DNA of 64,000 bases, from positions 7,559-71,558 of the forward strand of contig JBBAEA010000001.1 of the NCBI GenBank assembly GCA_041656175.1, in the 5' to 3' direction. Shown in pieces: positions 3,107 through 48,815 of the stretch. Numbering within the stretch: the first letter of the stretch is position 1; each line of letters starts with the position of its first letter. A program made the translations under genes and the position numbers. The stretch is from Bradymonadales bacterium. Lineage in GTDB: Bacteria > Myxococcota_A > Bradymonadia > UBA4248. The notes under the pieces were generated by a model. The model worked only from the letters and a program-made list of their open reading frames with translations, made no database searches and was not told the origin of the DNA.

Positions 3107-3270
3107 AGATTTATTTTGGGGCTCCGCCCCAAACCCCGCTAAGGGCGATAGCCCTTAGAACCCTTTTTTTGCGTACTGCTTGATTTGATTGACTTTATTT
3201 TAAACGCTCGCCTAGTTTTCCTTACTTTGCTCTAGTGACTTTTTGACCATTTTTGTATTGATCAGAGCGT
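3107..3270. repeat. MITE-like element, family 2 (TIR about CTCTGATTTAT/ATAAATCAGAG; internal hairpins GGGGCnnnnGCCCC and CTAAGGGnnnnnnCCCTTAG; AT-rich AAAATAAAGTCAATAAAATCAATA box)
   Basis: AGGGAAACTCAGATTTATT ... GGGGCTCCGCCCCAAACCCCGCTAAGGGCGATAGCCCTTAGAACCC ... TATTGATCAGAGC. Confidence 0.7.
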
Positions 3271-3473
3271 CACTAAGGAACTCATAGGTAAGTATGCTCA
3301 ACAACATAGTTCCCATTCTAGCAAACGCACTTTTCCAAACATCAGTGTAGCGAAGTTATAACTCAATTGCTAGCGATTTTTTGAACAGTTGTACAAAGGG
3401 CAGCAGCCAAAAAGCAAAACAAAATGACGGCAACACAATGATTACGAAAAGCACGCCATGGTTCATACAGCAA

Positions 3474-3494
3474 GGGCAGCTATGAACGCTGCCC
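3474..3494 (-). terminator. Candidate stem-loop immediately 3' of RNase J
   Basis: GGGCAGC-tatgaac-GCTGCCC is a 7-bp GC stem. On the minus strand it is followed by a short T-containing tract, so it is weak. Confidence 0.25.
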
Positions 3495-3499
3495 CTTGA

Positions 3500-5206
3500 T
3501 TATACGAATTCGAAGTGAACGATAACATGTGGGAACTTGCCCAATTTTTGTTTTATTATTTTTGCGGCTTTATGGCGTATAATCTCTTGCATATCGCCGT
3601 GCTTAGCCGAACTAATGATAGTTCGCTTAAGCTCATCCTGCATATCTTTGAGGAAGGATTTGTCGCTGCTAATGCCAAACTCCTCAATTCGCAGCTCTCC
3701 GCGCAATTGCTCATCTTTATTAAGCGCCCCCCCGACAAAGAGCATACCGTTGTGGCCTAAAACTTTTTTTTCGCGGGCGCAGTCGCGATCCATGCCATCT
3801 AAAGATTTACCCACGACGTATCGTCGCGAGGGGATGAAGCTTTGCTCCAACTCGTGTCTGTCTGAGAAAAGTTTTAAAGTATAGCCTTCCTCTATGGTTA
3901 TTGAGCGATCTGGTGAAGGTTGCATATCATCGGCTAGCGCTTCATGCATGCTCAAGCGGCGGTAGTCGCCGTGTATGGGTACAAATATTTCGGGTTCTAG
4001 GAGTTCGATCAATAATTCGAGTTCCTTGCGACCGCCGTGTCCCGAGCTATGGAATACAGCGTCTCTTGGGTTAAAAAGGGAAGCGCCTTGACGGTAGAAG
4101 CCATCGACAATCGCGCCTACGCGCTTTTCGTTACCTGGGATCTGGCGAGCCGAGTAAATCAGTGTATCGCTAGGACGCAAGCGAATATTATTGTGTTTAG
4201 CCTGCGATAACTTGTAGAGGCTTGAGGCGCGCTCACCTTGGGAGCCCGAGATAACAACAACGATGTTTTCGCCAGCTTCTTCAATCTTGTGTTCGGCAAC
4301 GATTTCCATGTCGTTTGGCATGCTAAAATAGTTCAGCTCGCGCGCGATACCGAGGTTGGAGTTTAGCGAGCGCCCGCAAACGGCAATTTTGCGATTCGCC
4401 GCTGCCGCCGCTGTAAAAATAGATTGCAAGCGTCCGATGTTTGAAGCAAAAAGCGTGACAAAGATTCGTCCCTTTAACTTTGTAAAAACTTCTAACAAAT
4501 CGTTGTAAATATCGAGCTCACTGGCCATGGCGTCGTCGACTTCGACGTTTGTGCTATCGGCTAAAAGTACGCGCACTCCCTCATCACCAAGCGCTTCGAG
4601 TCTTGCTAAATTCGTCTTGGCGCCTGCCATCGGTGTGTTATCTATGCGCCAATCTCCCGAGTGTACGATGGTTCCCGCGGGTGTGTAAAAAGCGTACGCT
4701 ACGCTACCCGGAATAGAGTGGCAAACGTCGATGCACTCCACACGGCAATCACCCAAATTAAACTCTTCTTTGGTGTTGATCACATTAAACAATACGCTCG
4801 ATAACAACTCATGCTCCGTTAGCCTACGCTTTACGAAAGCTAGCGTAATGTCGGTGCCGTAAATAGGCATCTTCCCGCGAAAGCCTCTTTTTTGCATTGT
4901 TTTGAGTAAGAAGGCGATCGCCCCAATATGATCTTCGTGCGCATGCGTTAACACAATGCCGTCCAAAGGCTGTGTTTCCAGAACACTAAAATCTGGCGTG
5001 ATAAGATCCACCCCCCAGTCATCGTCGGCGGGGAACATGATGCCGCAGTCAACCAATATACGACTTTTCGCACTTTCTAGCAGCATGCAGTTCATGCCAA
5101 ACATGCCGCTTCCCCCGATCGATGTGATCTTGAGCAGCGCGTTGTCCTCTGTTTTCTCTCTTCCTTCCCTTTTCTCTTCTTCCATTATCTCTCTTGAATT
5201 TTGCAA
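3500..5206 (-). CDS. rnj: Ribonuclease J (beta-CASP MBL-fold RNA-metabolising hydrolase)
   Basis: HAHEDHIG metallo-beta-lactamase motif, beta-CASP region, and a length typical of RNase J. The N-terminal poly-E stretch may mean the true start is internal. Confidence 0.85.
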   Translation of the reverse strand: MQNSREIMEEEKREGREKTEDNALLKITSIGGSGMFGMNCMLLESAKSRILVDCGIMFPADDDWGVDLITPDFSVLETQPLDGIVLTHAHEDHIGAIAFLLKTMQKRGFRGKMPIYGTDITLAFVKRRLTEHELLSSVLFNVINTKEEFNLGDCRVECIDVCHSIPGSVAYAFYTPAGTIVHSGDWRIDNTPMAGAKTNLARLEALGDEGVRVLLADSTNVEVDDAMASELDIYNDLLEVFTKLKGRIFVTLFASNIGRLQSIFTAAAAANRKIAVCGRSLNSNLGIARELNYFSMPNDMEIVAEHKIEEAGENIVVVISGSQGERASSLYKLSQAKHNNIRLRPSDTLIYSARQIPGNEKRVGAIVDGFYRQGASLFNPRDAVFHSSGHGGRKELELLIELLEPEIFVPIHGDYRRLSMHEALADDMQPSPDRSITIEEGYTLKLFSDRHELEQSFIPSRRYVVGKSLDGMDRDCAREKKVLGHNGMLFVGGALNKDEQLRGELRIEEFGISSDKSFLKDMQDELKRTIISSAKHGDMQEIIRHKAAKIIKQKLGKFPHVIVHFEFV

Positions 5207-5341
5207 GTTATTCTCTTTTTTCCTCGCTCGTGTTGAGCGTTCTATGGGTTAATAATATTTTCTTACTAAGTTTTAGCATGTGCTAAAGCAGCCAAAGCTC
5301 TCGTAGCAGCACAACGCAACGGGGCGGCATTCATTAAATTA

Positions 5342-5491
5342 GGGGGGTAGCGCAAGATCACCCGCAGAATCGGCATCTGAGCGCATTTTTTGCGCTGGAT
5401 GCGCGGATTGAGCGCATACAGCGCAAAAAATAGTGCGCGAAGCCGCCGATTATGCGGGAAGCTTGCGCGTAGGGGGGCAATGTTGCCCCCC
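5342..5491. repeat. MITE-like element, family 1 (subtype with the GCGCATTTTTTGCGCTGGATGCGCG...CGCATACAGCGCAAAAAAT core)
   Basis: Shares both termini (GGGGGGTAGCGCAAGATCACCC ... GAAGCTTGCGCGTAGGGGGGcaatgttGCCCCCC). Nearly identical to the copy at 48842-48990. Confidence 0.85.
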
Positions 5492-5530
5492 ACCAAAAGA
5501 CAAAAAAAACGTGTAAAATCAATGCCTCAC

Positions 5531-6847
5531 TTATTCATCATCGTCGCTTAGAGTTGCCTCGGCTTTGTGCTTCACAAAGACTTGTGCGATGCGGAATCGC
5601 TCCATGGCGGTGACGGTGTAGCTAAACTCGCCTTCTTGTACTTCGTCGTGGATTTTGGCGACGCGGCCGAGTTTTTCCATGATAAAGCCGGAGACGGTGT
5701 CGGAGTCGGCTTCGATGTTGGCGGTGCCAAGGTATGAGAATAGGTCGCTTAGGAGCGTGGCACCGTCGACGATGTAGCCGTCTTCGGTTTGTCTGATGTC
5801 TTCTTGGCTTTCGGGGTCAAATTCGTCGTCGATTTCGCCGACAAGTTCCTCGAGCACATCCTCGACAGTGACTAAGCCCGATGTGCCACCATATTCGTCG
5901 ACTACGATGGCCAAGTGCGAGCGTTGGCGTTGCAAGACTTCAAGGGCGGTGGAGATGTTGGCCGTTTCGGGGATGTAAACAGGGTCGCGGGTGAGTGAGG
6001 CGAGTGTGGCGGTGTCGGATGAGCGTTGTGCGGCGACCATGTCTTTGAGGTGAACGAATCCGAGGATGTCGTCGAGGCCATCGCGGTAGAGAGGGTAGCG
6101 GGAGTGGCCAGCTTCGAGGGCGAAGTTGAGCGCTTCGTCAAGGGGCATGTCGACTTGCAGGGCGCAGATTTTTCCGCGTTGTACCATGATTTCGCGCGCG
6201 CTAAGGGCGGAGAAGTTAAAGACCTTATCGAGCAGCGTTCCTTGTTCCTGAGTGATGGTGCCGTCCTTACTGGAGTGCTGGGCAATGTTTCGCAGCTCTT
6301 CTGCCGATATACCCACGGCGTGGCCAGCTTCGACGGGTTGGACGTTAAATAGGCGCAAAACCCCGTTTGATGCTTTGGTCAAGACCCACATCACGGGCCT
6401 AAAGACCCAGTGAAAGATTTGCATGGGTAGTGCTACAAAGATGCTGACTTCGATGGGTTTTGCGATGGCAAGGCTTTTGGGCGCGATTTCGCCAAGGACG
6501 ATGTGGAGGAAGGACACGATCGAGAAGGCGATGACGAAACTGATGTAGTGCGACAGATCTTCTGAGATCGGTAGTTGCAACCACATAATAAAGGATAGCA
6601 GATGGCGATTGATGGCGGGCTCCGCCAGCCAACCCAAGCCAAGGCTAGCGAAGGTAATGCCTAGTTGCACCGCCGATAGGTAGCTATCAACGGTGTGTAG
6701 CACATCAAGGACGCGACCTGCTCCGCGGTTGCCGCCCTGCTTGAGAACCTCCAGTTGCGATGCTCGAACGCGTACAAGGGCAAATTCGGCTGCCACAAAA
6801 AAACCGTTTGCCAAGAGCAATAAAACCACTAAAACTATTTCAAACAT
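5531..6847 (-). CDS. CNNM/CorC-HlyC family membrane protein (DUF21 + CBS pair + CorC_HlyC)
   Basis: N-terminal TM DUF21 region, a CBS pair, and the C-terminal transporter-associated domain. This is the hemolysin-family architecture. Confidence 0.8.
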
Positions 6848-6898
6848 ATGTGTATTTTAAGAAAACCCCCCGCCCTTTTGGGATAAACCCCAAAGCAA

Positions 6899-8248
6899 TT
6901 ATAATATATAGCGTCCTAAGTCTTCATCTTCAATAAGATTCTCGATGTGCTTGCGAACGTAGTCGGCATCGATAACGACTTTTTGCGCTTGCATTGAGCA
7001 GGCGTCAAAGCTGAGTTCATCGAAAACGCGTTCAATCACCGTGTGTAGTCTACGCGCGCCGATGTTTTGCATGCGCTCGTTCGCCTTTGCCGCCGCATCG
7101 GCCATCGCCTCTATCGCGTCATCGCTTACCTCGACGTCGAGGCCTTCGGTTTTTAGTAGGGCGATATACTGCTTAACCAAGCTGTTGTGCGGTTCGCGCA
7201 GAATGCGCACGAAGTCGTCTCGCGTTAAGTTATCGAGCGTGACCCGAATCGGGAAGCGCCCTTGTAGCTCGGGGATGAGATCGCTGGGCTTTGAGACGTG
7301 GAATGCGCCTGAAGCGATAAACAGGATGTGATCTGTTTTGATAAAGCCGTACTTTGTCTTTACGGTTGAACCCTCGACGATGGGGAGCAGATCGCGCTGC
7401 ACACCTTCTCGTGAAACATCGGGGCTTCGGCCACCATCACTATGGTTTGACGCAATTTTGTCAATCTCGTCAATGAAGATAATTCCCATTTGTTCAGCGC
7501 GTACAAGCGCTTGTGACTCCACCGCCTCGTTGTCTATGGCGCTGCTAGCCTCTTCGGTTTTGAGCAGATTGAGCGCTTCAGCGATTTTCATTCGGCGTTT
7601 TCGCGTTTTCTTGGGCATAATGTTAGAAAAGAAGTTTTTCATCGAATCTTCCATCTCATTCATGCCATCGTTGCCCTGTGGATTGAAGAGGCGGAAACTA
7701 GCGCCAGCTTTATCGGCAACCGATATTTCGACGTATCGCTCGTTGAGAGCCCCGCTCTGTAGCAGTTCCCTAAGTTCTTCATCGCTAGCGCCTTGGGCGC
7801 CAGAGCCGCGCTCTTCTTGGATCGCGGCAATGATCGCATCCTCTGCCGCTCGCATCGCTTGCTGCTCAACGCGCGCCATCGCTTCTTCTTGCACGAGCTT
7901 GTAGGCCATCTCGACGAGATCCCTAACCATGCTTTCGACGTCACGTCCGACGTAGCCCACCTCCGTAAACTTGGAGGCCTCCACCTTTATAAAGGGCGCA
8001 TGGGCCAAGTTGGCTAAGCGCCGTGCAATTTCGGTCTTGCCCACGCCGGTGGGGCCGATGAGCAAAATGTTTTTGGGCGAAATTTCGTCTCGCAAATCCT
8101 CTGCAACCTGCTGGCGTCGCCAACGATTGCGTAGCGCAATCGCGACAGAGCGTTTAGCGGCATTTTGGCCGATAATATAGCGGTCAAGCGCCTCAACGAT
8201 TTGGACAGGACGCAGGTTCATCTGCTTTTGGTGCTGTGCATTCGACAT
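6899..8248 (-). CDS. hslU: ATP-dependent protease ATPase subunit HslU
   Basis: Walker A GPTGVGKT. Full-length similarity to ClpY/HslU. Sits directly downstream of hslV. Confidence 0.95.
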   Translation of the reverse strand: MSNAQHQKQMNLRPVQIVEALDRYIIGQNAAKRSVAIALRNRWRRQQVAEDLRDEISPKNILLIGPTGVGKTEIARRLANLAHAPFIKVEASKFTEVGYVGRDVESMVRDLVEMAYKLVQEEAMARVEQQAMRAAEDAIIAAIQEERGSGAQGASDEELRELLQSGALNERYVEISVADKAGASFRLFNPQGNDGMNEMEDSMKNFFSNIMPKKTRKRRMKIAEALNLLKTEEASSAIDNEAVESQALVRAEQMGIIFIDEIDKIASNHSDGGRSPDVSREGVQRDLLPIVEGSTVKTKYGFIKTDHILFIASGAFHVSKPSDLIPELQGRFPIRVTLDNLTRDDFVRILREPHNSLVKQYIALLKTEGLDVEVSDDAIEAMADAAAKANERMQNIGARRLHTVIERVFDELSFDACSMQAQKVVIDADYVRKHIENLIEDEDLGRYIL

Positions 8249-8261
8249 AATAATACTCTAC

Positions 8262-8813
8262 CTAAAGTTCTTCGGCTACGGAGGCGATGGTTTGGCAAAC
8301 GATGTTTTCGTTGGTGTAGATGCAGAGGTCTGCGGCGATTTGCAACGATTTTTTAGCAATCTCCTCGGCGCTCAATTGCGTATTATCCATCAGCGCGTTG
8401 GCGGCGGCGAGTGCGTATCCCGAGCCTGATCCGATGGACATAACGTTTTTGTCGGGGCTAAGTACATCGCCAGATCCCGATATTGTGAGGGTGATATTTT
8501 TATCGGCGCAGAGCAGCATCGCTTCGAGGCGGCGCAAGATCTTGTCTGTTCTCCAGTCCTTGGCCAACTCAACGGCTGCACGCATCAAGTCGTTTTGGTA
8601 CGCCGATAACTTCGCTTCTAACTTCTCAAAGAGGTTTAGCGCGTCCGCCGTCGAACCAGCGAAACCTACCAAAACTCGTCCTCCCGCAAGACTACGTACC
8701 TTGCGCGTTGTGTGCTTAATCGCGATATCTCCTAGTGTCACCTGCCCATCCCCCGCCATGGCGACAAAATCGCCGCGCCGAACGGCAAGTATGGTTGTGC
8801 TACGTATCTTCAT
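8262..8813 (-). CDS. hslV: ATP-dependent protease subunit HslV
   Basis: Begins with the TTI Thr active site after Met, has GDGQV, is 183 aa, and sits in an hslVU operon. Confidence 0.95.
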
Positions 8814-9153
8814 GAGTGGCTCCTTTTTGTGAAAAATAGCGCTCTGCTTTGCGGCAAAACGCCAAAGCGAATTTTAATCACCAGAGCAACAAAGTGAAGC
8901 AAGAAAAACTGGGATTCTATGTTTAAAAGCGCAATAACAAAAACGAACCGTTTTTAAACCTACTAGCCCTAAGCCACGATGCTTTGAAGCCACTTCACCC
9001 GTTACAAAGAACTATCCGCACGTCATTCATGCTAAGACCAAGTTTACGGACGTCGCTTCTTCCCTATAAGCCAAAAGCCCCCTGCTCTTACAGGAGGCTT
9101 ATTGAACGTTTACACAACGATACGGATTTTTTCAAAATTCCGCGAAGCCACAA

Positions 9154-9789
9154 CTAGCCAAAAACCTTCAGTCGCTTCTCAATATCCGCATCCCCTCGCT
9201 CGCCTGCTGCTTGGACGATTTTGCCAAACGGCATCTGCGCTAGCAATGTCCAAGTTTCCGAAACGCCCCAGCGCTTTTTCACTTCGTCATCAATGAGCGG
9301 GTTATAGTGTTGTAGCGACGCACCAATGCCGTTCTCCGCAAACGCTACCCAAACTGCGTACTGCAACATACCGTTTTCCTGCAAAGCCCATGGTGGGAAG
9401 TTTGCCGCATACAACGGATATGCATCCTGTAACCCCTTGGTTTTGGCTTCGTCTGTAAAGAACAAAACAGTGCCTCGACCCGCCTTAAACGACGCAATCT
9501 TTGCCTCCGTTTGGCTAAACTGCTCCGCTGGTACCAAGGGTTTTAAGGTGTTTAGCACAATATCCCATAGGGCTTCGTGCTCTTGGTCTAAAAGCAGAAC
9601 CACTCCCTGCGTTTTCGAATAAAAAGCCGATGGCACTTCAGCCAATATATCACTCACTAATTTTGTAAGCTGCTCTTTAGTATAGTCAATTTCGTCGTTT
9701 ATCGCGTACTGCGTGCGTCGCAAGCCAAACAATTTTACGCTTTCATTCTTCATCGTTATCTCCCGTAAAATCCAATTCATATCGTGCAC
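9154..9789 (-). CDS. Nitroreductase-family-like protein (probable start at internal Met, about 9753)
   Basis: RRTQYAI motif near the N-terminus, similar to the RRS-R-F nitroreductase signature, and the C-terminal HYNPL...W pattern. The similarity is weak. Confidence 0.4.
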   Translation of the reverse strand: MHDMNWILREITMKNESVKLFGLRRTQYAINDEIDYTKEQLTKLVSDILAEVPSAFYSKTQGVVLLLDQEHEALWDIVLNTLKPLVPAEQFSQTEAKIASFKAGRGTVLFFTDEAKTKGLQDAYPLYAANFPPWALQENGMLQYAVWVAFAENGIGASLQHYNPLIDDEVKKRWGVSETWTLLAQMPFGKIVQAAGERGDADIEKRLKVFG

Positions 9790-10050: not shown

Positions 10051-10164
10051 TAGAGCTTTGCGCTTGCCCTACCCGCGCTCCCCTTCCCAACAGAGAGCAT
10101 AGCCCCCCGTAATGCCCTCACAGACGCGTCTTCAAAATAAAGCCCATAAAATCAATGCGCCAAC

Positions 10165-20299: not shown

Positions 20300-20560
20300 A
20301 GTTGCAAGCGCTTTGTTCGGCTTGAAGCTGTTTTAGATGGATATTGACGGGGCATTCACCGATCTTTGCTCATATTTTAATTTTTTCGATCATAAGCTTA
20401 CTCTAATTCAGTAGGGCAGCGCCCTCATAGAACAGAGCGGTACTGGTGTAGAGGCAGCTTTCAAACCTGCTCTTGATGAATGCAAAAATCGTATAAAGCG
20501 CAATCGTAGGGCAAGGGAAGAGAGACTATCGCATAAAATAAAGTCAAGACATCAAGTCTT
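20300..20560. repeat. Partial or degenerate family 2 element (boundaries approximate)
   Basis: CAGTAGGGCAGCGCCC...GAGGCAGCTTTCAAACCTGCTC and AAAATAAAGTCAAGACATCAAGTC match the family-2 core blocks (CAGTAGGGGGCATCTTTCAAACCTGCCCC, AAAATAAAGTCAATAAAATCAATA). Confidence 0.45.
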
Positions 20561-22650: not shown

Positions 22651-22826
22651 TTCTATGGAAACTTTGATTAAACAAACCCCGTCTATGTGCTTACGCCCTT
22701 AGGACCCGTTTTTGTGTGTAGAGTTTTGATTTTATTGATTTTAAACGCTCGCCTGAATTTCATTTTGTAATTAAGGGCAGGTTTGAAACCAGCCCCTGCT
22801 GTTTTTGCTTTAATCAGATTTTTGCA
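22651..22826. repeat. MITE-like element, family 2
   Basis: GGAAACTTTGATTAAAC ... CCCTTAGGACCC ... TTTGATTTTATTGATTTT ... AAGGGCAGGTTTGAAACCAGCCCCTGC ... TTTAATCAGATTT. Confidence 0.65.
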
Positions 22827-25774: not shown

Positions 25775-25921
25775 GGGGGGGCAAGCCCCCCTACGCCCGA
25801 GCCTCACGCCTGCATTCGCTAAAAGCTGCAAAATAATTTGCACCGTCTTGGCTGTGCGCCAAGCCAGTGCAAATTATGCATCTTTTGTGAATGAAGGCGC
25901 GGGGTCTCGTGCTACCCCCCG
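25775..25921. repeat. MITE-like element, family 1 (divergent core)
   Basis: GGGGGGcaaGCCCCCCTACGCCCGAGCC ... internal palindrome GCAAATTATGCA/TGCAAAATAATTTGCA ... GTGCTACCCCCC. Confidence 0.75.
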
Positions 25922-26108
25922 TTTAATGGGCGAGAACAGTAGGTTTCGCCTCAGAATCAACAGCATTTGTAACGCTAAGAGCGCGTCTTTGGCAATATGA
26001 ATGATCTAAAGTAAGCAAACTAGCGAAGGCTGGCACCAAGATGGGCTGCTATGACATATTGTGACAATTATTTATTCTTTTGCTAGAGCCTGTAGTATAA
26101 AATTAATT

Positions 26109-26975: not shown

Positions 26976-27165
26976 ACGGTTTCCAAGAAGGAGAAAGCAA
27001 GGCTTCGAGTTTTATACGCACATGTTCGCCTTTTGCGCAATAATGTTCAATGCTTTTTGCGATGCGCCTTGTTTTGTTAGGACAAGTCCTTGTCACTGCA
27101 TAGAGTCGAGGACTTAAAGTCCGTGCGCTACACGAATATATCACTTGCTCAGTCTGTTGGGTAGG

Positions 27166-27312
27166 AGGGGGTAGCCCAAGATCGCCCGATAAATTCGCCC
27201 GTATATGCATTTTATGCCTTGGTTTGGCATAGCCAAAACAAGGCATAAAATAAAGCAGATACAGGCGAATTTTGAGGGAAGCTTGGGCGTAGGGGGAAAC
27301 TTCCCCCTACGC
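27166..27312. repeat. MITE-like element, family 1 (divergent core)
   Basis: GGGGGTAGCCCAAGATCGCCCGAT ... palindrome TTTATGCCTTGGTTTGGCATAGCCAAAACAAGGCATAAA ... GAGGGAAGCTTGGGCGTAGGGGGaaacttCCCCC. Confidence 0.8.
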
Positions 27313-30517: not shown

Positions 30518-31002
30518 AGCCTTCGGGGTTAAAGAAAAAAAACGTCACTAAAAACGCAGACACAATGTAGGCAAATGTGCGCGAGATCGCAATAGTCGCA
30601 GTTTTCGTCGCGCAGTACGACGCTGCGCTTTTCCAGATAGAGACCTATGCATGGATAGAAGTAGTGAATTTAACTTTACAAATTCGATACAGTTTTAAAC
30701 AAAATGAGACATTTTGTAGAGAAGCATAAGTTAATAATGCTAATCATATAAGACAGGTAGAAGATAGAATGACATTTTATTCGAAAAGCGCTTAAAAGAC
30801 TGTTTTCTTTGGGAAAGGGGGGAAACATCTTTTCTTTGGCACAAAGAAAAGAGTTTCCCCCCGTGCAAAGCTCTCAGATATTGAAAATTAATGTTTCGCC
30901 AGCTTCAAAAAAACAGCTTGCACATTTTAGAAATTTCTACAATGATACAGTCGCGCAAAATTGCGCATAAAATGCTAATGGCACAGGTGTTTCAGGGTTT
31001 AC

Positions 31003-33691: not shown

Positions 33692-33716
33692 GCGAGATTC
33701 TTATCAGTTCTTCACT

Positions 33717-33860
33717 GAGGAGGTAGCGCGGGATCGCCGAGAAATACGACCAATGAGCGAATCTTATGCTTTGGTTTGGCGAATAGCCGAAACAAAGCAT
33801 AAGATAATCGCGAATTGGTTGTATTTTGAGGAAGCCCGCGCGTAGGGGGAAACTTCCCCC
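33717..33860. repeat. MITE-like element, family 1
   Basis: GAGGAGGTAGCGCGGGATCGCCGAG ... palindrome TTATGCTTTGGTTTGGCGAATAGCCGAAACAAAGCATAA ... GAGGAAGCCCGCGCGTAGGGGGaaacttCCCCC. Confidence 0.85.
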
Positions 33861-40056: not shown

Positions 40057-40138
40057 AGTTCATCACCTTTATATACACGTTACATACACAAGTCTATAAA
40101 TAGCGTAGAAAATGTGGGCTGCGTGTAGGTGGGTGTGG

Positions 40139-40410: not shown

Positions 40411-40472
40411 TTTATTTCTTAAGTTTACTGTTTAGTTCCATTTTATTTCTTAAGTTTACTGTTTAGTTCCAT
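40411..40472. repeat. 31-bp tandem duplication (tttatttcttaagtttactgtttagttccat x2) immediately upstream of the 40500 gene RBS
   Basis: Two identical adjacent copies. Confidence 0.85.
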
Positions 40473-40499
40473 TTTACAAAAGCAGACAAAGGAAGGCAA

Positions 40500-42383
40500 A
40501 TGACCCAAGAAAACACTACTGTCGTAGAAAATGCGCCGCTTTATGAAGGCAGTCTGTATCTGTCCGAGAACGTAGATTATTTTCAGAATGGCGATGATTT
40601 CTTCGTCTATCACAATTTATATGGTTATATCCTAAAAATGAGCGAAGATTTGGTGGATTTCCTCGAGTTTTTTGCGACGGAGCGAAAAGCCGAAGAGATG
40701 CATGAGAACTACGACGAAATTTTTGGTCGTGACACGCTGCATGAGTTTTTGAGCATATTCCGAACTTTGGCCTGTTTGCTGCCAAGCGATGACTACGAGC
40801 GTGAAAAGACACTGTCGATGTACCCGACCCAAGCGCGTTGGATCACGGTGCACAGTCCAAAAGATGGCAATACCAAGATCTACGCCTTCGACACCCAAAC
40901 ACGTCGCGACATGCGCACTGTCCAGCTCAACGAATGGGAAACGGCGCTGTGGAAGCTATGCGCTGAGGGGAATAAAACGGTGCAGAGCATAGTCGATGAA
41001 ATTGCAGCTCACCCGCATAGCCCAAGCTCTGGGGTAGAAGAACTCGTACTCGCCACCCTCGCGCAGTGGACGCACTGCGAGTTGCAAGTACTCAAGTTGA
41101 GCGCTGAGCCTTGCAGTATGTACAAAGGCCGTCGCTTTGGTGTACCTCCCTACCTCATTTCTACGATGCCCTACGAAAGGGTGACTGCCTTAGTGCGTAC
41201 CGAAGTCGACGAAAGCGGCAAAATTATTAAACCCTACGAAGAAACTATTCGCGTTAAGTCGCAAGGGCTTAAAATCGAGAGCATAGAACCAGAAGTTCTC
41301 CAGAAAGATCGCTTATCTGCTCGTCTATCGACGATTTTAGCCGAACCGCATGAAGTGCTCGCCAACGAATCTTACGCAGAGCGTGTCTTTGAGCTAGCGG
41401 ATGGTGTTTGCGAAGTTCGCGGCGAGGAATTTGCGGTTCTAGACATTGGGGGCGGACTTGGTGAGACGGCTAAAGGCTTTGTTAAAGCCTTTAAAGCCAA
41501 GTACCCCGATGTGAATTTGCGTTACACGATTTATGCGCCAAGCGAAGAATTTGCGCAAATCCAAGCCCAAACCCTTGAGGAAACGCCTGAGGTAGGCATC
41601 GCGATTGGAGATCCCAACCATCTCGCCGATAACCTCAATGATCGAAAGTTCGACTTTATTCTTTGCGATGAATTTTTAGCCAATTTGGAGTCCGTGTCGG
41701 TGCGCAAAATGGTTCTCGGTGGTAGTAACGAGGAGGAAGAGGAAGAGGAAGATGTGGGCGAGGAGCTGCTAGAAGGCGAAGAGTTAAGTGCACCTGCGAC
41801 AGAGCGCCCGGGAGATGAGGCGAAATTAACGTTTATAGGCGAGGGAGACGCGATACAGCAGATTTTTAAACATAAACTCAAGCTAAACGATGCGCCTGAA
41901 GACTTCTATCTTAATAATGGTTCTCTGCGTCTACTCACGCAGATTGATCGCTTGTGCAAGTTTGGCACCCAAGTTTTTCTCATCGAATTCGGCGAGGAGC
42001 TAAAGTATCCTGTTCGCACGTTTGAAGAATTGAGCGAAGCTTACTCGCAGCATTTTGGCATACTGCGCCAAGCCGCCGAGAATATGGGCTACCGCACGAG
42101 GCTAAGTTACTGGATGGAAGATCTCGGTCTTGATCGCGAATGTTCGATGTTTTCGACCACTCGTAGCCAGTTTAAAGCCATGCGCTGTCTATTTGCGGAT
42201 CACGGCATAGAACTTGAGCGCCGACCCTATACTGAGGGTGAAATGCGCGAGATTCTCAAACGCGCCAATATTGGCGAAGATGAGATTGTCGAACTCAACT
42301 TTGAACCGGCAGAAGACCGCATTTCTGGACTAGTGCCGCATTCCTACAAGTTTTTGCGCATCTTTAAAGAGCTCGAGTTTTAG
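40500..42383 (+). CDS. Hypothetical 627-aa protein: PqqD-like N-terminal segment (inference) + class I SAM-dependent methyltransferase-like core with a poly-Glu insert
   Basis: MTase motif I VLDIGGGLGETAKGF. CDEFLANLESV and FLIEFGEE are reminiscent of MidA/DUF185-type MTases. The N-terminus FFVYHNLYGYILKMSEDLVDFLEFF...LHEFLSIFRTLACLL has a PqqD/RRE-like pattern. Acidic linker SNEEEEEEEDVGEELLEGEE. Confidence 0.45.
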   Translation: MTQENTTVVENAPLYEGSLYLSENVDYFQNGDDFFVYHNLYGYILKMSEDLVDFLEFFATERKAEEMHENYDEIFGRDTLHEFLSIFRTLACLLPSDDYEREKTLSMYPTQARWITVHSPKDGNTKIYAFDTQTRRDMRTVQLNEWETALWKLCAEGNKTVQSIVDEIAAHPHSPSSGVEELVLATLAQWTHCELQVLKLSAEPCSMYKGRRFGVPPYLISTMPYERVTALVRTEVDESGKIIKPYEETIRVKSQGLKIESIEPEVLQKDRLSARLSTILAEPHEVLANESYAERVFELADGVCEVRGEEFAVLDIGGGLGETAKGFVKAFKAKYPDVNLRYTIYAPSEEFAQIQAQTLEETPEVGIAIGDPNHLADNLNDRKFDFILCDEFLANLESVSVRKMVLGGSNEEEEEEEDVGEELLEGEELSAPATERPGDEAKLTFIGEGDAIQQIFKHKLKLNDAPEDFYLNNGSLRLLTQIDRLCKFGTQVFLIEFGEELKYPVRTFEELSEAYSQHFGILRQAAENMGYRTRLSYWMEDLGLDRECSMFSTTRSQFKAMRCLFADHGIELERRPYTEGEMREILKRANIGEDEIVELNFEPAEDRISGLVPHSYKFLRIFKELEF

Positions 42384-42492
42384 CGCAGGGAGTTTGAGTC
42401 AACGTAAACGATTTAGCTTTTCTTAGGCTTTGCACTTTAGCTATGGTTGCAAAGCCAAGTCACTACCATTTAGCGCTTTTAGGTTTTTTTAC

Positions 42493-43242
42493 ATGGATTT
42501 ACCCGAACTTTGGTACGATCTGCCGCTGGCAGTCTTTGACGTAGAAACGACAGGCTTCTCCCCCGATGAAAACCAGATTATTGAGATCGGCGTGGTACAC
42601 TTTCACCGCGGTGAACTGCAGGAATCCTTTAATTGGCTTATCGATCCAGAATGTGAAATACCGCCAGAAATTGTTAAGTTAACGGGAATCACGCAGGAAG
42701 ATGTGACTGGAAAACCGACGTTTCGCGAGATAGCCGCAGATTTTGTGGAGGTGATGAAGGGGCGAGGGCTAGTGGCGTACAACTTGGCTTTTGACCGCAG
42801 TTTCCTAAGTGTAAACCTCGAACGTTGCGGCTACCAATGGTTTGACGATCAACCCAGCTTTGATCCCCTTATCTTCGCAAGGCACATATCGCCGCAAGCG
42901 CGCGATAACAAGCTAGTGACTGTGGCGAAACGCTACAACATATCGCTTGAAGGTGCACACCGCGCTTGTAACGATGCGGAAGCTACGGGCAAAGTTTTAT
43001 ATGCCATGCGCGACGCGTTGCCGCCTGTTCTGCAGGATCTCATCGTGGTTCAAGTACAATGGGAGATTCAGCAGCGCAATGCTTTTAGGGGCAAGGATAA
43101 ACGGCGAAACAGCGAGTTTAGCAGCATCTTGTCGCAAGAAAGCGCTGGTGAGGCAAGACTCGGCCCAGCCTTTATACACGGAAGCGAAGCGGATCCGCTT
43201 CGCGCCTACTACGATTCGTTGATGAGTATGAAAGAGCCCTGA
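42493..43242 (+). CDS. DnaQ-like 3'-5' exonuclease (DEDDh, Pol III epsilon-like)
   Basis: Exo I VFDVETTGF, Exo II AYNLAFDRSFL, Exo III HRACNDAEAT. The start is set at an internal Met. Confidence 0.75.
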   Translation: MDLPELWYDLPLAVFDVETTGFSPDENQIIEIGVVHFHRGELQESFNWLIDPECEIPPEIVKLTGITQEDVTGKPTFREIAADFVEVMKGRGLVAYNLAFDRSFLSVNLERCGYQWFDDQPSFDPLIFARHISPQARDNKLVTVAKRYNISLEGAHRACNDAEATGKVLYAMRDALPPVLQDLIVVQVQWEIQQRNAFRGKDKRRNSEFSSILSQESAGEARLGPAFIHGSEADPLRAYYDSLMSMKEP

Positions 43243-43278
43243 GCTGGTACTCATCGCTGTAAAACTTAGGCAATATTT

Positions 43279-43818
43279 ATGAAGATACTTCTAATTTTAG
43301 CAAACGGCTTTGAAGAAATCGAAGCTGTCACCCTGATTGACATTGCTCGGCGTGCAAAGATGGAACTAAGCATTTGCTCGTTACACAATAGCGATACAGT
43401 GCAAGGTTCGCATAAAATTGAGCTAAAGGCTGAAATTCATTTTGATGAGGCCAAAACAAAACAGTGGGATGCGGTCGTGCTCCCTGGCGGAATGGGCGGC
43501 GTAGAAGCAATGCTCAAGAGCGACGCATTTTTAGCCTTCCTTAAAGAGCACGCCAAAAATCACCGACGTATCGCTGCTATCTGTGCAGCCCCCATGATAT
43601 TAGATCACTGCGGCTTACTCGAGGGGCTTGCTTTTACCTGCCACCCCAGCGTTGTGCAGAAAATTAAAACAGGCAAATACGTCGATGCACCAAGTTTACA
43701 AACACCGAAAATTCTCACAGGGCGTTCCGCTGGTACGGCGCTTTCCTTCGCGCTTGCCTTTGTTTCGTGGATGCTCGGTGAAGTACCCGCAGGGCTTCGA
43801 GACGCTTTAGCCATTTAG
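43279..43818 (+). CDS. DJ-1/PfpI family protein
   Basis: 179 aa. Nucleophile elbow AICAAP. VLPGGMGG motif. Confidence 0.8.
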   Translation: MKILLILANGFEEIEAVTLIDIARRAKMELSICSLHNSDTVQGSHKIELKAEIHFDEAKTKQWDAVVLPGGMGGVEAMLKSDAFLAFLKEHAKNHRRIAAICAAPMILDHCGLLEGLAFTCHPSVVQKIKTGKYVDAPSLQTPKILTGRSAGTALSFALAFVSWMLGEVPAGLRDALAI

Positions 43819-44162
43819 TCGTGAAGCGCCTGTTACTATAGCTTCAACCTTAGGCTATAGAGCTCACAAAGATCGCATCTTCTGTCTTTATACGAAAAAA
43901 AAGACAGTTCGTTCGCTAAAATTCAAAAAAACTGCGTTCTATTGAGAAAGGAAAGCTATGTTGGCAATTTTGAGCTAAATCCAAAACGAATGAGCCATTG
44001 TTGGCAAGTTTGCTGCAAAGAAGAACAAGGTTTTCGGCAGTGCAAAGTCTTTTGCTTGTAAGCAAAAGAGAAATAATATGCTATGTAGGCAACGGTGTGC
44101 GTTGCTGCGCCGATTGACCTTAATTTTGCGCGAAAGAGCGCAAGTGCGGATTATTAGGCTAT

Positions 44163-46220
44163 TTGATGGATATGGAAGGAAAAATGCCACGTCTTGGGCG
44201 TTTGTATATTGCTTTGTGCACGGCAAGCATCGTGATGCAATTAGTGAGCTTGCAGTTACGCCACTCGATTTTTGGGGGAACGGCTTGGCTGGTGACAGTG
44301 AAGTACGAAGGGGTATGGGAGCGCTTGGGGATTTTTATGTTAGTGGCTACGTTTTGCGCTGCTTTGTGTGGCTTGTGGCTGCTTTTGGGGGATTGGCTAG
44401 GGCGAGTGTTGAAATTTCGAGAAGAGCGGACACACCGCTGGCTTGCGACTTTGTGGTTAGTATTCCTTGTTTTGGAGATGCTACTTCGACTTAAGCTAGC
44501 GGAATTTTTGGGAAGCAAGTTTAGGCTAACAGAATTTGCTTCGGGAGTCGGCGGCTTTTGGCGCATGTTAGTGCAGGCATTTAATTGGTATTGGGATATT
44601 ATTCTGCTTTCTTTGTTTGGTGTTTTTCTGCTAGCTTTGGCTATCTATTTTTTTAATCGCTGGTTCTTGGGACAACGGTTTGCCATATTCCGCGCGATTG
44701 ATCGTGTGCCCCGAAAAATATTAATACTCATTGCTTCCGTAAGTTTTTGTGTTTCGTTAACGTTTATGGCCTTTCCTATGCAGTTTCCGCTCACGCGCGA
44801 GCTCATTGCAAGTGAAACAGCGGTTGGGGCTCCCTTTAGCTACATTCTTAAATTGGTTTCTGATTTCGATGGCGATGGTTACGGTCGATTTGATCTGCCA
44901 CCCGACACCGCCCCGCTCGATCCAGATTGTTATCCTTATGCGCTAGATATTCCAAACGACGGTATAGATCAAGATCTACTTTTGGGCGACTTGCAGCCCG
45001 ATACTTTAGATCCTGCACTGCGAGCGTGGATAGAAACTCAAGGTCAAGAAGCACTAGCGAGCCCCGCGACGCGTAAAAACGTCTTTTTAGTTTTTATGGA
45101 AAGTGTTCGCAACGACATGCTGGACGCGAGTATCGAAGGCAAGCGAGTGATGCCAGAACTCAAGGCGTTTCGCGATAAGGGGGCGCTACGAATTGCACGT
45201 ATGTTTGCGACGCGCGGCTTTACCCAAAACTCTATAACTCAATCGTTTTGGGGCTCTTTCTTTGATCCAGGCACGAGCCTTGTGGATGATTTTACGCAGA
45301 TGGGCTACAAAAGCGTGGCGCTTAGCGGAGAGAGTTTACTCGACGAGGGCTTTGACGTGAGCTTGGGTTGGTTGCGTAACGAGGCGATGATTGTTGATCC
45401 GCGCCATATGCCCGAGAACGAACGAGGCTCTGCCACGGTGCCTGCGCGCGTTGTTGCCAAGCATTTTGAGCGAATCTTAGAGGAAGACGATGGCGATAAA
45501 CCGTTGTTTATGTATGTTTTTTTGCAGGATCCGCATTTTCCCTATCAACAAGACAATCCCCCGGTTTTAGTTGATCGCACGATTATGCGTAGCGAAATCA
45601 ACGCCAAGAACCGAGCTAGGCTTTGGAGAAGCTACGCTAACCAAGTGCATCATTTAGATGCAGCTTTGGGGCGTATGATCGCAGCGCTCGAAGCGCGGAA
45701 TCTACTTGAGGATAGCTTAATCATTATTGTGAGTGACCACGGCGAATCTCTTTACGACGATGGGAGCCTTCTGGGGCATGGGATTGCACTGCAAAATGTG
45801 ATGACGCATTGTGCCATGCTTGTGTGGGGTGCAAGCGGTTCGTTGGAACAGAACATGAGTCAGATCGACTTGCGGCGATTTATCCTTACACAAAGCACGC
45901 GTCAAGCTAGTGAAGCCCCCTTCACTGGCGTTGCCGAGCGCGATGCGCCTTTACTCCAATTTATTGGCGCTACCACTGTGCCGAGTTCGATCTCGTTTTT
46001 GTACCCAAACGACGAACGCATAGTTTATAATTATGCCACCAATAGAGCTTACCGCGAAAGCTCTAGCGCTAGTTATCCCCATCAAATTAAAACGGCGCAT
46101 CTACAAAACACGGAACGATTGCAGTCGCCAATACCAGATGCATTGCGCGATGAAGATATTCAGCAACTCGTGAATACTTGGGCCTACATGCAGTGGTTCC
46201 ACCGCGGAACGAAGAATTAA
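44163..46220 (+). CDS. LtaS/sulfatase-like alkaline-phosphatase-superfamily membrane protein
   Basis: N-terminal multi-TM region, then a C-terminal sulfatase-like domain (VFLVFMESVRND, IIVSDHGESLYDD). Confidence 0.65.
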   Translation: MMDMEGKMPRLGRLYIALCTASIVMQLVSLQLRHSIFGGTAWLVTVKYEGVWERLGIFMLVATFCAALCGLWLLLGDWLGRVLKFREERTHRWLATLWLVFLVLEMLLRLKLAEFLGSKFRLTEFASGVGGFWRMLVQAFNWYWDIILLSLFGVFLLALAIYFFNRWFLGQRFAIFRAIDRVPRKILILIASVSFCVSLTFMAFPMQFPLTRELIASETAVGAPFSYILKLVSDFDGDGYGRFDLPPDTAPLDPDCYPYALDIPNDGIDQDLLLGDLQPDTLDPALRAWIETQGQEALASPATRKNVFLVFMESVRNDMLDASIEGKRVMPELKAFRDKGALRIARMFATRGFTQNSITQSFWGSFFDPGTSLVDDFTQMGYKSVALSGESLLDEGFDVSLGWLRNEAMIVDPRHMPENERGSATVPARVVAKHFERILEEDDGDKPLFMYVFLQDPHFPYQQDNPPVLVDRTIMRSEINAKNRARLWRSYANQVHHLDAALGRMIAALEARNLLEDSLIIIVSDHGESLYDDGSLLGHGIALQNVMTHCAMLVWGASGSLEQNMSQIDLRRFILTQSTRQASEAPFTGVAERDAPLLQFIGATTVPSSISFLYPNDERIVYNYATNRAYRESSSASYPHQIKTAHLQNTERLQSPIPDALRDEDIQQLVNTWAYMQWFHRGTKN

Positions 46221-46223
46221 ACG

Positions 46224-47090
46224 ATGCCACTTTGGAGAGGGTTTTTATATTCGCTTCTATGCCATATTTTGGCTTTTTACGTCAGTTCGCTTTTGCCAAA
46301 GAGCGAAGGAAATATGGCGTGGTTGCTACGCGATAGCCATACTGTGCAGCACGAAATCGTGCCTTTAAGCGTAGTTTTAGCCCATCCAACTTATGATGCC
46401 GGCTACGACGATGATGCTCAAGGCGAAGATGCTCAAGGCGATGAAGCGCCTTTTAACGAAAAGCGCGAAATGCCAAAGTTAGTTTTGAACTTTGCTGCGC
46501 CGAAAGCTGAAGTTCGACCTGATGATGAACTTGAGGGAAGCAAAAAGCCGGAGAGCATAGAAAGCCCTAGCGAAGCTCTTGAGAGCGGAGCAGAGCAAGT
46601 TTTTGTAATGCATGGCGAAGACGCGCATGCGGGAACTCGCGAACTTACGAGAAATACTGGCGGATTTGGCGATGATGGGGGTATTGGCGACGCTAATAGC
46701 ACGTCAAAAACAAGCGGTGAAGGGCAGACAACGGGTGGTGGGAATGCGCGTTTTGCTAGCGCACGCGGGGGAGGCAGTGGCATTGACGAAGCTGGCGTTT
46801 GGCTAGCATACCTGAGAGAAATTGCGTCGGTCTTGTTAAAATCAAAATTTTATCCGCCTTTGGCAAGACAATCGCGTCAGCAAGGCGTCGTCATCCTCGA
46901 ATTCGTCATTCACCGTGATGGAAGCGTAGAAAACCCACAGATCTACAAAAGCTCGGGCTTTGCTTCATTGGATCAAGCGGCATTGCAAGCTTTAGCGATG
47001 GCGGGAAGACTACCAGCCTTTCCTGACGCGTTAAGCGCCGAGCGTAAAAAACTGCGCGTACCTTATCATTATAGCTTGGGGAATAGATGA
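46224..47090 (+). CDS. TonB-family energy transducer (C-terminal TonB_C domain)
   Basis: N-terminal TM, Pro/Glu-rich spacer, C-terminal QQGVVILEFVIHRDGSVENPQIYKSSGFASLDQAALQA. Starts 4 nt after the upstream gene. Confidence 0.65.
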   Translation: MPLWRGFLYSLLCHILAFYVSSLLPKSEGNMAWLLRDSHTVQHEIVPLSVVLAHPTYDAGYDDDAQGEDAQGDEAPFNEKREMPKLVLNFAAPKAEVRPDDELEGSKKPESIESPSEALESGAEQVFVMHGEDAHAGTRELTRNTGGFGDDGGIGDANSTSKTSGEGQTTGGGNARFASARGGGSGIDEAGVWLAYLREIASVLLKSKFYPPLARQSRQQGVVILEFVIHRDGSVENPQIYKSSGFASLDQAALQALAMAGRLPAFPDALSAERKKLRVPYHYSLGNR

Positions 47091-47284
47091 TGAGAGAGCT
47101 TTTTTTTCGTATTTTCAGCCTAAAAACTGTAGAATCTTGAGGGAGCTACTGTTTTATTTTATTTTTGCCTAATTTTGTGCGAATGTTGGCCATGCACTTG
47201 TGTAAGCGTTTTTTCGCTTCAAGGAATGATTTTGTTGTTTTGAAATCACACAGGTCTTTCTGATTTGTGCCACCTTGCAAGTCG

Positions 47285-47518
47285 TTGGTTTAGACGGGTT
47301 TTGGACGCTAGCCCAATAAATCAGAGCTTCCTTAGGGAGTCTCTGATTTATGCAAAAACAGTAGGGGGCATCTTTCAAACCTGCCCCTGATTAAAATGAC
47401 AAAAGCCTGGCGAATTTTCAAAATAAAGTCAATAAAATCAATACCCTACACACAAAACGGGTTCTAAGGCCGATAGCCCTTAGACGGGCTTTGGGGCGCT
47501 AGCCCCAACAAATCAGAG
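47285..47518. repeat. Family 2 elements: a 3' fragment plus a full copy in tandem, immediately downstream of lexA
   Basis: ...AGACGGGTTTTGGACGCTAGCCCAATAAATCAGAGC then TTAGGGAGTCTCTGATTTATGC...GGGGGCATCTTTCAAACCTGCCCC...AAAATAAAGTCAATAAAATCAATA...CTAAGGCCGATAGCCCTTAGACGGGCTTTGGGGCGCTAGCCCCAACAAATCAGAGC. Confidence 0.75.
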
Positions 47519-47523
47519 CTTTT

Positions 47524-48288
47524 TTAGGCGTATTGGCGCAGAACCCCGCGCACGGAGCCCAAAACACGGAATTGCTCGCATTCTTCCTCGCTTAAATCGA
47601 TGGGCTCCATATCAGGGTTTGAGGGGAGTAGTCTTATGCGTTTACCTCGTCGTTCGTAGCGTTTCACCGTGGCTTCACCGCCCACGAGTGCGGCGATCAA
47701 TTCGCCGTTCTCTGCTGTTGATTGCTCGCGGATAAAGACGATGTCGCCGGGCATGATTCCGTCGCCGATCATACTCGTGCCGCGTACGCGAAGTGCGAAC
47801 ACGTCGTCCATTCCACGGCAAAAGAGCGATGCATCCATGATGAGGCTTTCTTCGCGCTCTTCGTAGGCTTGCGTAAGTGGCCCTGCAGCGATGCGTCCCA
47901 AAACGGGTATACTGCGGTAAAACCCATCGTCGCTAAGCTGCGATAATGTGTTTTTGTTCAGGTTTATGACCTCGTCTTGCGAAATTTGGAAAGCTTTAGC
48001 TTTCGGCGAATCGACTGCGGGTTTGGCTTTTTTAACTTTACTGTTACTGCGTTGTATAACGACATCAGCGGCATCAACGATAGGTCGCAAGGTGCGACTT
48101 TTGGAATCTTCCTTGCTGAGATAGCCCTTGCGAACCAAGGCAGCTAGGTGCTGTGCCACACCGTTTGTGGAACGTAGACCAAAGTGATTAGTGATCTCGC
48201 GTACTGAGGGTGGGTACATGTTTTCATCGATGTACGCTAATATATGTAGATATATCTCAGCTTGCCTTTGCGTTAAACTCATTTCCAT
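47524..48288 (-). CDS. lexA: LexA repressor (S24 peptidase), with an extended inter-domain linker
   Basis: N-terminal LexA wHTH (LTQRQAEIYLHILAYIDENMYPPSVREITNHFGLRSTNGVAQHLAALVRKGYL). C-terminal S24 domain with the Ser (GTSM) and Lys (VKRY) dyad. The start is set at an internal ATG preceded by GAAGGA. Confidence 0.8.
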   Translation of the reverse strand: MEMSLTQRQAEIYLHILAYIDENMYPPSVREITNHFGLRSTNGVAQHLAALVRKGYLSKEDSKSRTLRPIVDAADVVIQRSNSKVKKAKPAVDSPKAKAFQISQDEVINLNKNTLSQLSDDGFYRSIPVLGRIAAGPLTQAYEEREESLIMDASLFCRGMDDVFALRVRGTSMIGDGIMPGDIVFIREQSTAENGELIAALVGGEATVKRYERRGKRIRLLPSNPDMEPIDLSEEECEQFRVLGSVRGVLRQYA

Positions 48289-48505
48289 TACACAGTTCCT
48301 TCGCTTTGGCGGAACAATCCGCATAAACAATCTAGTGTACATTTGTGCAGCGGTCAAGTTTTTTTCGCGCAATCGCTGTACATGCGTTCTTAACGTTCGC
48401 GACGCCAAAAAAATTTAGCGCGTAGCCAAAAAGGCGAAGTAGAGCGCTAACTTGTTGTAGACGTCAGTGCTTAGCTTTTTCGCTGCGAGGAATTGAAAGC
48501 AAGAA

Positions 48506-48815
48506 GCAGCTTTTAGGGAAACTCTGATCAATGTAAAAATTGCCAAAAAGCAGCTAGAGCAAAATAACAAAAGTCAGGCAAGTTTTAAAATAAAGTCAAT
48601 AAAATCAATGCTCTAAGTGCAACAGCGAGTTCTAAGAGCGATAGTCCTTAGATGGGGTTTGGGGCGTATTCCGGAGATTCGATGTGGGCAAAAATCATAA
48701 AAAGCGGCTAGAGTAAAGTGTGGGAAGCTATTTTGGCTTCTTTGAACGCAGTCTAAAATTTGCATGATGCTTTTCTTAGCAAGTTGAAGCGCTAGTCCAA
48801 AATCGATCAGAGTTT
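48506..48815. repeat. MITE-like element, family 2, abutting family-1 copy 48842-48990 (upstream of lexA)
   Basis: TAGGGAAACTCTGATCAATG ... AAAATAAAGTCAATAAAATCAATG ... CTAAGAGCGATAGTCCTTAGATGGGGTTTGGGGCG ... AAATCGATCAGAGTTTG. Confidence 0.65.

Follow-up and report, generated by a model that had tools for sequence, protein, structure and literature searches.

The window analysed here, a stretch of 64,000 nucleotides of a Bradymonadales bacterium (contig JBBAEA010000001.1, positions 7,559 to 71,558), carries ordinary chromosomal genes, including those for RNase J, MalQ, LexA, TonB, RND efflux, GlmM and Rex, as well as several kinds of short repeats. One of these, family 2, is the subject of this report. 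We consider it very probable that family 2 is an ancient non-autonomous MITE (a miniature transposable element with inverted repeats) of the IS5 type, about 188 bp long, which duplicates the 4-bp target YTAR. An IS5-type MITE is an ordinary kind of element, of which family 2 represents a new family with unusually clear target habits.

The original prediction had described the family from copies sharing short inverted ends, hairpins, a GGGCAGGTTTGAA block and an AT-rich box. All of these motifs were recovered at or near the expected places and above chance: the AT box had five matches in the window at three or fewer mismatches compared with none in 100 shuffles, CTAAGGG-n6-CCCTTAG had four (0.11 expected), GGGCAGGTTTGAA six (1.7 expected) and the 11-mer terminus CTCTGATTTAT four (0.95 expected). 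Comparison of the region 47300-47530 with the window returned, besides several fragments, four more long matches. From 37 full copies a profile was made and searched over the window and a set of fetched loci or contigs compared with it (designated by L-numbers; 470 kb in total). This yielded 116 matches, 11 of them at about eight loci in the window (E-values 1e-55 to 7e-3) and about 105 further ones spread over 42 contigs of the metagenome Ga0265293, with 44 matches being essentially full-length. The reference copy with its parts and the other copies in the window are as follows.

47336..47523, plus strand: copy B, the reference full-length copy (188 nt); profile match 47333-47526, E=1e-55
47332-47335 and 47524-47527: TTAG, target duplication of copy B, a direct repeat
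47336..47352, plus strand: left terminal inverted repeat of copy B, GGAGTCTCTGATTTATG
47364..47387, plus strand: hairpin module of copy B, GGGGGCA-N11-TGCCCC (the GGGCAGGTTTGAA block on the other strand)
47420..47443, plus strand: AT box of copy B, AAAATAAAGTCAATAAAATCAATA
47464..47483, plus strand: hairpin 1 of copy B, CTAAGGCC GATA GCCCTTAG
47493..47506, plus strand: hairpin 2 of copy B, GGGGC GCTA GCCCC
47507..47523, plus strand: right terminal inverted repeat of copy B, AACAAATCAGAGCTTTT
47253..47331 (left boundary uncertain), plus strand: copy B0, internally deleted, head-to-tail against copy B; profile match 47290-47334, E=7.5e-6
3099..3272, minus strand: copy A (174 nt, without the hairpin module); profile match 3096-3275, E=4e-42; flanked by CTAG (3095-3098) and CTAA (3273-3276; TTAG in element orientation); ends 22 nt upstream of the ATG of gene 2276-3076
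48517..48817, plus strand: copy C; profile match 48514-48668, E=1e-34; TTAG at left (48513-48516); right terminus resumes at 48790-48817 after a foreign insert (48667-48789)
14483..14770, minus strand: copy D; profile matches 14640-14765 and 14480-14529; CTAG at 14479-14482; far (left) terminus decayed
22657..22824, minus strand: copy E (168 nt; module present, hairpin 2 absent); profile match 22656-22818, E=2e-33; flanks decayed (CTAT / CAAA)
20448..20560, plus strand: fragment F, degenerate, with the hairpin module and an AT-box-like stretch; profile match 20448-20486, E=1.7e-3
10122..10159, plus strand: solo AT-box fragment, E=2.9e-5, just beyond the 4-alpha-glucanotransferase stop codon
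321-383 and 492-579, minus strand: two left-half fragments adjoining the family-1 copy at 149-293

The alignment of full copies extends over their whole length of about 188 nt, beyond the short blocks first noticed. When 37 of them were aligned together with 50 nt of flanking DNA, the edges were abrupt at identical columns in all, sharply separating core from flanks. Read from the left, the profile consensus consists of TTAG (left target duplication), GGATGCTCTGATTAATGCAAAAACAGTA, GGGGCAGCTTTCAAACCTGCCC (an optional hairpin module), TTGATTAAAACAACGAAAGTCAGGCGAGTTTTC, AAAATAAAGTCAATAAAATCAATG (the AT box), CTCTACACACAAAAACGGGTT, CTAAGGGCGATAGCCCTTAG (hairpin 1), ACGGGGTTT, GGGGCGGTAGCCCC (hairpin 2), AATAAATCAGAGTTTCC and TTAG (right target duplication). 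This 188-nt consensus is non-coding, with stop codons in all six frames. The terminal inverted repeats are imperfect and 17-20 nt long (GGAAGCTCTGATTAATG / CAATAAATCAGAGTTTCC), and are kept across 47 aligned copies (GGAWGCTCTGATTAATG compared with the reverse complement GGAAACTCTGATTTATTG); the 11-nt termini proposed earlier (GGAWNCTCTGATTNATG) were correctly seen as inverted, while their length was underestimated and the flanking YTAR missed. Likewise, the hairpin given as CTAAGGG-n6-CCCTTAG is present, its actual form being an 8-bp stem (CTAAGGGC/GCCCTTAG) with the 4-nt loop GATA.

The optional hairpin module (GGGGCAGSTTTCAAASCTGCCCC) is present in about half of the copies and absent from the other half, and the GGGCAGGTTTGAA block, which does belong to the family, is one of its arms. 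At the threshold used, the module was found 33 times inside family-2 copies and six times outside, with four of these six directly adjoining a copy. A 13-mer match at 3474 does not belong to copy A, from which it is about 200 bp away. The solo hairpin at this place (3474-3494, GGGCAGC-TATGAAC-GCTGCCC, followed by CTTGATTA) directly follows the stop codon of RNase J (3500-3502, minus strand); with the bases after it, it is similar to the family-2 module, and may be either a remnant of one or the 3' hairpin of RNase J itself.

Beyond at least 44 full-length copies sharing sharp boundaries over 188 nt, the description of family 2 as MITE-like is upheld by a target-site duplication, the presence of which the original prediction had left to be checked. 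Counted over 70 left ends and 68 right ends, the adjoining 4-mers consisted of Y (86-90%), T (82-87%), A (84%) and R (93-96%), with an additional slight preference for C before and G after YTAR. The two flanking 4-mers were identical in 12 of the 39 copies anchored at both ends and, among copies with YTAR on both flanks, in 10 of 15 compared with 4.26 expected (permutation p=0.0013). Asymmetric targets occurred as TTAG/TTAG five times and as CTAA/CTAA twice, while TTAG/CTAA was never observed. Since these targets match directly, the four bases constitute a direct duplication rather than an extension of the inverted repeats, and its length is 4 bp, not TA. The four YTAR variants were used at similar rates.

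The distribution of the copies reflects this target. Even though about 78% of the DNA lies in long open reading frames (ORFs), 69 of 78 copies are intergenic (overlapping long ORFs by 40 nt or less), without bias in orientation relative to the flanking genes (16 divergent or head-to-head, 16 and 14 in the two tandem orientations, 10 convergent or tail-to-tail). In about 12 of 70 cases a left end follows directly on another copy's right end, with one shared YTAR in between, as for copies B0 and B in the window, which meet at 47331/47336 and have the TTAG at 47332-47335 in common; a motif map of the loci showed eight tandem junctions with ends exactly 4 bp apart. Two further copies are inserted at the TTAG that belongs to hairpin 1 of a different copy. 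Ten of the 138 ends fall at the stop codon of an ORF with 100 codons or more, the stop being the TAR of the duplication, compared with 0-4 at each of the other offsets from -90 to +39. In the window this applies to lexA (47524-48288/48408, minus strand; a 296-codon open frame), whose TAA stop lies within the CTAA that forms the copy B duplication at 47524-47527. The data thus show cleanly how a YTAR-specific element distributes itself, by tandem re-use of its target, by self-nesting in the TTAG of its hairpin and by insertion at stop codons.

Two other contacts between ORFs and family-2 elements were noted. Four more ORFs run into an element and stop at the TGA of CTCTGA. The terminal repeat of copy D contains the first possible ATG of ORF 13221-14498 (14496-14498), which the ENA assembly likewise calls as the start; either the first five codons come from copy D or translation truly begins at an in-frame ATG about 18 codons downstream.

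The target, and more tentatively the termini, point to IS5, which inserts at YTAR with a 4-bp duplication (PMC5009759). The direct YTAR duplication is thus common to IS5 and family 2. In a single comparison with the ends of E. coli K-12 IS5A (GGAAGGTGCGAATAAG and GGAAGGTGCGAACAAG), the common family-2 terminus GGAAGCTCTGATTAAT was identical to GGAAGGTGCGAATAAG at 11 of 16 bases, including the first five, GGAAG. IS5 and the MITEs derived from IS5-family elements also prefer, or survive in, non-coding DNA as family 2 does; the Porphyromonas MITEs, whose termini are shared with ISPg elements, are an example of such IS5-family derivatives (PMC4596501). Family 2 differs in that no transposase gene or cognate full-length insertion sequence was found in the searched loci, plasmids, phages and viral contigs, in that its interior, with its three GC hairpins and the conserved AT box at the centre, is unrelated to that of E. 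coli IS5, and in that its host lineage is uncultured and far removed from any genome in which an IS5 MITE has been described.

Family 2 would accordingly be the non-coding remnant of an insertion sequence of the IS5 kind, with a DDE transposase that acted in trans and spread copies through the intergenic DNA of one uncultured lineage; that this transposase was of the IS5 type is what we infer from termini and target. The enzyme would bind the imperfect terminal inverted repeats (GGAAGCTCTGATTAATG and its partner), make a 4-bp staggered cut at YTAR with a slight preference for C-YTAR-G, and join the element to the cut ends, and gap repair would leave the direct YTAR duplication. The duplicated YTAR would be a target again, and placed beside ...TTCC/GGAA... 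it would resemble the extended preference, so that new copies would often abut old ones across a shared YTAR or enter the TTAG arm of hairpin 1. Insertion at stop codons would be tolerated because YTAR contains TAA or TAG and the duplication regenerates the stop. The central AT box may be an architectural site, IHF-like (integration host factor) or otherwise bending, that would aid synapsis of the ends of so short an element; its 3' part AATCAATGCTCTA differs from the IHF consensus WATCAANNNNTTR at a single position and has an A/T-rich tract upstream. The GC hairpins would be inherited parts of a master copy, perhaps with a weak structural role. Median pairwise identity between copies is 72% and the maximum 91%, and the family is old and probably inactive.

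Several observations weigh against an IS5 origin or limit what can be drawn from the alignment. The interior of family 2 is not more similar to E. coli IS5 than shuffled sequence, which confines the likeness to the 16 terminal bases and the target. No autonomous element with family-2 termini was found in the 470 kb of loci or in plasmids, phages and viral contigs, and tblastn of E. coli InsH against the 470 kb gave nothing better than E=1.2. Four overlapping assemblies, which are 99.7-100% identical, did not differ in the presence or absence of copies and hence offered no filled site to set against an empty one. Duplications of 4 bp are also made by other DDE families. Finally, the AT box is the best-conserved block among the aligned copies, and its conservation and that of TTTGGGG are partly an artefact of ascertainment, as the two-anchor pattern by which the metagenome was searched required both. 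Even so, 16 of the 28 copies not matching this pattern have at most one AT-box mismatch in 17 nt, in a family only 72% identical overall.

The related searches gave a similar picture. When plasmids and phages were searched by blastn with the consensus and with the left end, there were either no matches or chance 20-mers in coding DNA, and a scan of viral contigs for the terminus gave one chance match. In L078, two terminus-like motifs separated by 819 bp lie within genes of the ftsI/ftsL type and were rejected as a chance match. Looking for orthologous empty sites revealed no synteny between the window and the Ga0265293 loci.

A MITE of another DDE family, either of the IS630/Tc1-mariner type with its TA duplication or of a 4-bp-duplicating type (piggyBac-related/IS1380 or IS701), would account for the constancy of the central TA, the most constant part of the target, as well as for the presence of TTAA among the four target variants and for the failure to find an IS5-type transposase nearby in the 470 kb. 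We nevertheless hold such an origin to be improbable: a TA-only duplication predicts random or complementary outer Y and R positions, while these were 86-96% constrained and matched directly on both sides; the four YTAR variants are used similarly, as in IS5, and the termini start with GGAAG, as in IS5. Scarcely credible is a palindromic element of the repetitive extragenic palindromic (REP) or REPIN kind moved by a RAYT (Y1) transposase, as family 1 may be. Family 2 does have GC-rich hairpins near one end and shares the window with a REP-like family ending in GTAGGGGGG...CCCCCC, but its direct 4-bp target duplication and true terminal inverted repeats, the absence of a conserved 5' GTAG beside the palindromes, and its length of 188 nt with a non-palindromic interior, unlike a REP doublet, all speak against this.

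A different kind of explanation regards the hairpins and the AT box as a regulatory cassette exploited by the host, a structured small RNA or a set of intrinsic terminators, which was spread by selection for function. The paired hairpins had been suggested to be a small structured RNA or tandem terminators, a suggestion that is weakly backed at best, and the cassette is in our judgement a distinctly unlikely account of the family. On either strand the element gives a more stable fold than shuffled sequence (z=-4.0 and -2.8), although the good folding energy comes largely from pairing of the terminal inverted repeats, as in any MITE. Hairpin 1 of copy A followed by AACCCTTTTT passes a terminator scan, whereas copies B and E fail, leaving copy A as the only one of the scanned window copies to pass, and the T-run after hairpin 1 (on the antisense strand of the consensus) begins 6 nt past the stem. 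Compensatory changes are few, comprising U-A to C-G at one hairpin-1 pair in seven copies across subfamilies and GC/CG in the module. Ten of the 21 hairpin pairs show a double change somewhere among the 47 copies, which are related by descent. Counted on the named three-hairpin structure in the 47-copy alignment, pairing was kept in 83.9% of cells compared with 82.3% after column shuffling; the hairpins thus owe their maintenance mainly to conservation of the sequence as such. G-U exceeded A-C mismatches in hairpin 2 (11 vs 1), but this asymmetry is inconsistent between helices (18 vs 28 in hairpin 1; 50 vs 34 overall, p=0.10). No relevant Rfam match was found even at E≤10, orientation relative to the flanking genes is even (16/16/14/10), RNAalifold returned no structure for the gappy 47-copy alignment, and the promoter-like matches in copies B and C were weak and at the level of shuffles. 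We conclude that the family-2 hairpins should not be regarded as an RNA gene and are under mild structural constraint at most; individual copies could act as weak terminators.

Among known small repeats, the Correia elements (CREE) of Neisseria resemble family 2 in size (about 100-190 bp), in their terminal inverted repeats, in their hundreds of intergenic copies and in that a family-2 RNA, if transcribed, would fold into a long hairpin. They contain a central IHF-like site, to which the one-mismatch sequence match in family 2 corresponds, and for this a role as a bending site that brings the element ends together has been proposed (PMC10969869). Unlike family 2, which duplicates YTAR, they duplicate TA, have 26-bp repeats, and possess documented promoters and RNase III processing. 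In pneumococci, the unrelated small repeats BOX, RUP and SPRITE accumulate in common intergenic regions and are nested in each other (PMC10969869). Comparable accumulation and nesting is seen here for families 1 and 2, for element N and for a 250-bp family described below, although families and hosts are different, families 1 and 2 co-occur no more often than by chance, and the nesting is partly site-specific (hairpin loops, YTAR). Among eukaryotic elements, the Tourist MITEs of the PIF-Harbinger group are also non-autonomous and go back to DDE transposases related to IS5. Their target, TWA, is short, palindromic and centred on TA, with a 3-bp duplication, and in this description they are comparable to family 2 with its YTAR target and 4-bp duplication.

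Copies of family 2 had been thought to cluster beside those of family 1, for example around lexA, which suggested insertion hotspots or co-mobilisation. Family 1 is an element of about 150 nt, largely palindromic, with REP-like ends (GTAGGGGGG-N4-CCCCCC); it gave 76 profile matches in all and has ten loci in the window, listed here by position.

149-293, 5333-5487, 14950-15100, 25776-25923 and 27158-27307: family-1 loci in the window
33710-33860, 48835-48989, 51154-51278, 56952-57103 and 61750-61897: the remaining family-1 loci in the window

Neither clustering nor co-mobilisation was borne out. Of 243 intergenic gaps, family 1 was present in 13 of the 86 with family 2 and in 31 of the 157 without (odds ratio 0.72, p=0.39), and in the window alone in 3 of 8 and 6 of 23, respectively (p=0.66). 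The apparent clustering near lexA needs no more than chance, since both families are confined to intergenic DNA, and seeming clusters of several repeat families can be explained by such common confinement. The JGI and Logan assemblies (L118, L119) have another family-1 variant (81% identity) at 33.7 kb, along with about 440 bp that the window lacks. This was the one repeat-associated polymorphism observed between assemblies.

A more unusual object than family 2 itself is a younger structured element, here called N, which was found at the hairpin loop of this MITE. It occurs in a short form of 120 nt and a long form of about 200 nt, without obvious terminal inverted repeats, at the following places.

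14530-14649 of the window: element N, splitting the hairpin-1 loop of copy D
L075 9705-9900, L081 45-240, L088 3285-3480, L089 1939-2137, L107 12115-12297, and in L064, L093, L079 and L109: element N elsewhere

The exact hairpin-1 loop position is occupied by N in five diverged family-2 copies (copy D and those in L075, L081, L064 and L109). N was also found within a frame of the family-1 type in L088, L093 and L079, and more diverged N copies are present in L089 and L107. Identity among the N copies is 93-99%, compared with 64-88% for the family-2 DNA around them; being far more alike than their flanks, they represent independent and recent insertions into old, diverged copies. N folds strongly (z=-4.7 and -4.2), and six of the 56 pairs of its consensus structure are kept through double changes in two diverged copies. 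It had no Rfam match and was absent from viral contigs. Four contigs break inside N, as expected of a repeat of high copy number and high identity. We tentatively suggest that hairpin 1 (CTAAGGGC-GATA-GCCCTTAG) serves as a specific landing pad for N and that N may be an undescribed small structured element targeting hairpin loops. N might, for instance, be non-autonomous and derive from a transposition system of the single-strand or RNA-guided kind (IS200/IS605-like or IS110-like), with the old MITE as its safe harbour.

Other repeats adjoin or enter family-2 copies as well. The hairpin-2 loop of copy C is split by a 123-nt insert (48667-48789), a weakly repeated sequence which is 77-84% similar to positions 299-352 and 14827-14897 of the window and to sequences in L073 and L104; we take it to be another small repeat that tends to adjoin family-2 remnants. 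A repeat of about 250 bp, 'family 3' (30629-30892 in the window), had 59 blastn matches in the window and loci at E≤1e-4, and in L089 it is nested within a family-2 copy (133-573).

Sampling defines how these counts are to be read. The two-anchor metagenome pattern, which asked for the AT box and TTTGGGG, returned 47 loci, 42 of them from Ga0265293; the other five (L080, L094, L099, L102 and L106) lacked a profile match and were set aside as chance. A degenerate AT-box pattern run against a genome collection gave 62 chance matches in AT-rich genomes, none with extended similarity. The window contained no tRNA genes and no Rfam match at the gathering threshold. In 16.9 kb of this genome outside the window, one additional partial copy was found, and extrapolation from density, as opposed to counting, puts the copy number per genome in the low hundreds. 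The window GlmM is at most 79% identical to any other entry of the protein collection, and its nearest named matches (63-65%) come from metagenome-assembled genomes labelled 'Myxococcota bacterium' and 'Proteobacteria bacterium'; with relatives so distant, the host belongs to a poorly sampled, uncultured lineage.

The window overlaps four assemblies, namely contig k141_555794 of ENA ERZ27247346 (100% identical) as well as contig Ga0591958_0000145 of JGI 3300060803 and two Logan assemblies (99.7-99.9%). Two Logan contigs terminate within copies A and B. Family 2 on its own is routine, and knowledge of it is mainly of use for repeat masking, for annotation and in explaining assembly breaks.

Tandem repeats were also present in the window. 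An intergenic array at 11936-12442, with periods of 55, 37 and 102/103 bp, is 74-88% similar to arrays in L067, L093, L110, L078 and L108 from the other metagenome. Short tandem repeats were observed at 18377-18584, 40439-40445, 50688-50855 and 59572-59721, several of them within long ORFs and one consisting of a 12-nt unit that reads K-P-A-P in frame. The assemblies differed in length near 18.46-18.51 kb, 40.44 kb and 59.64-59.66 kb.

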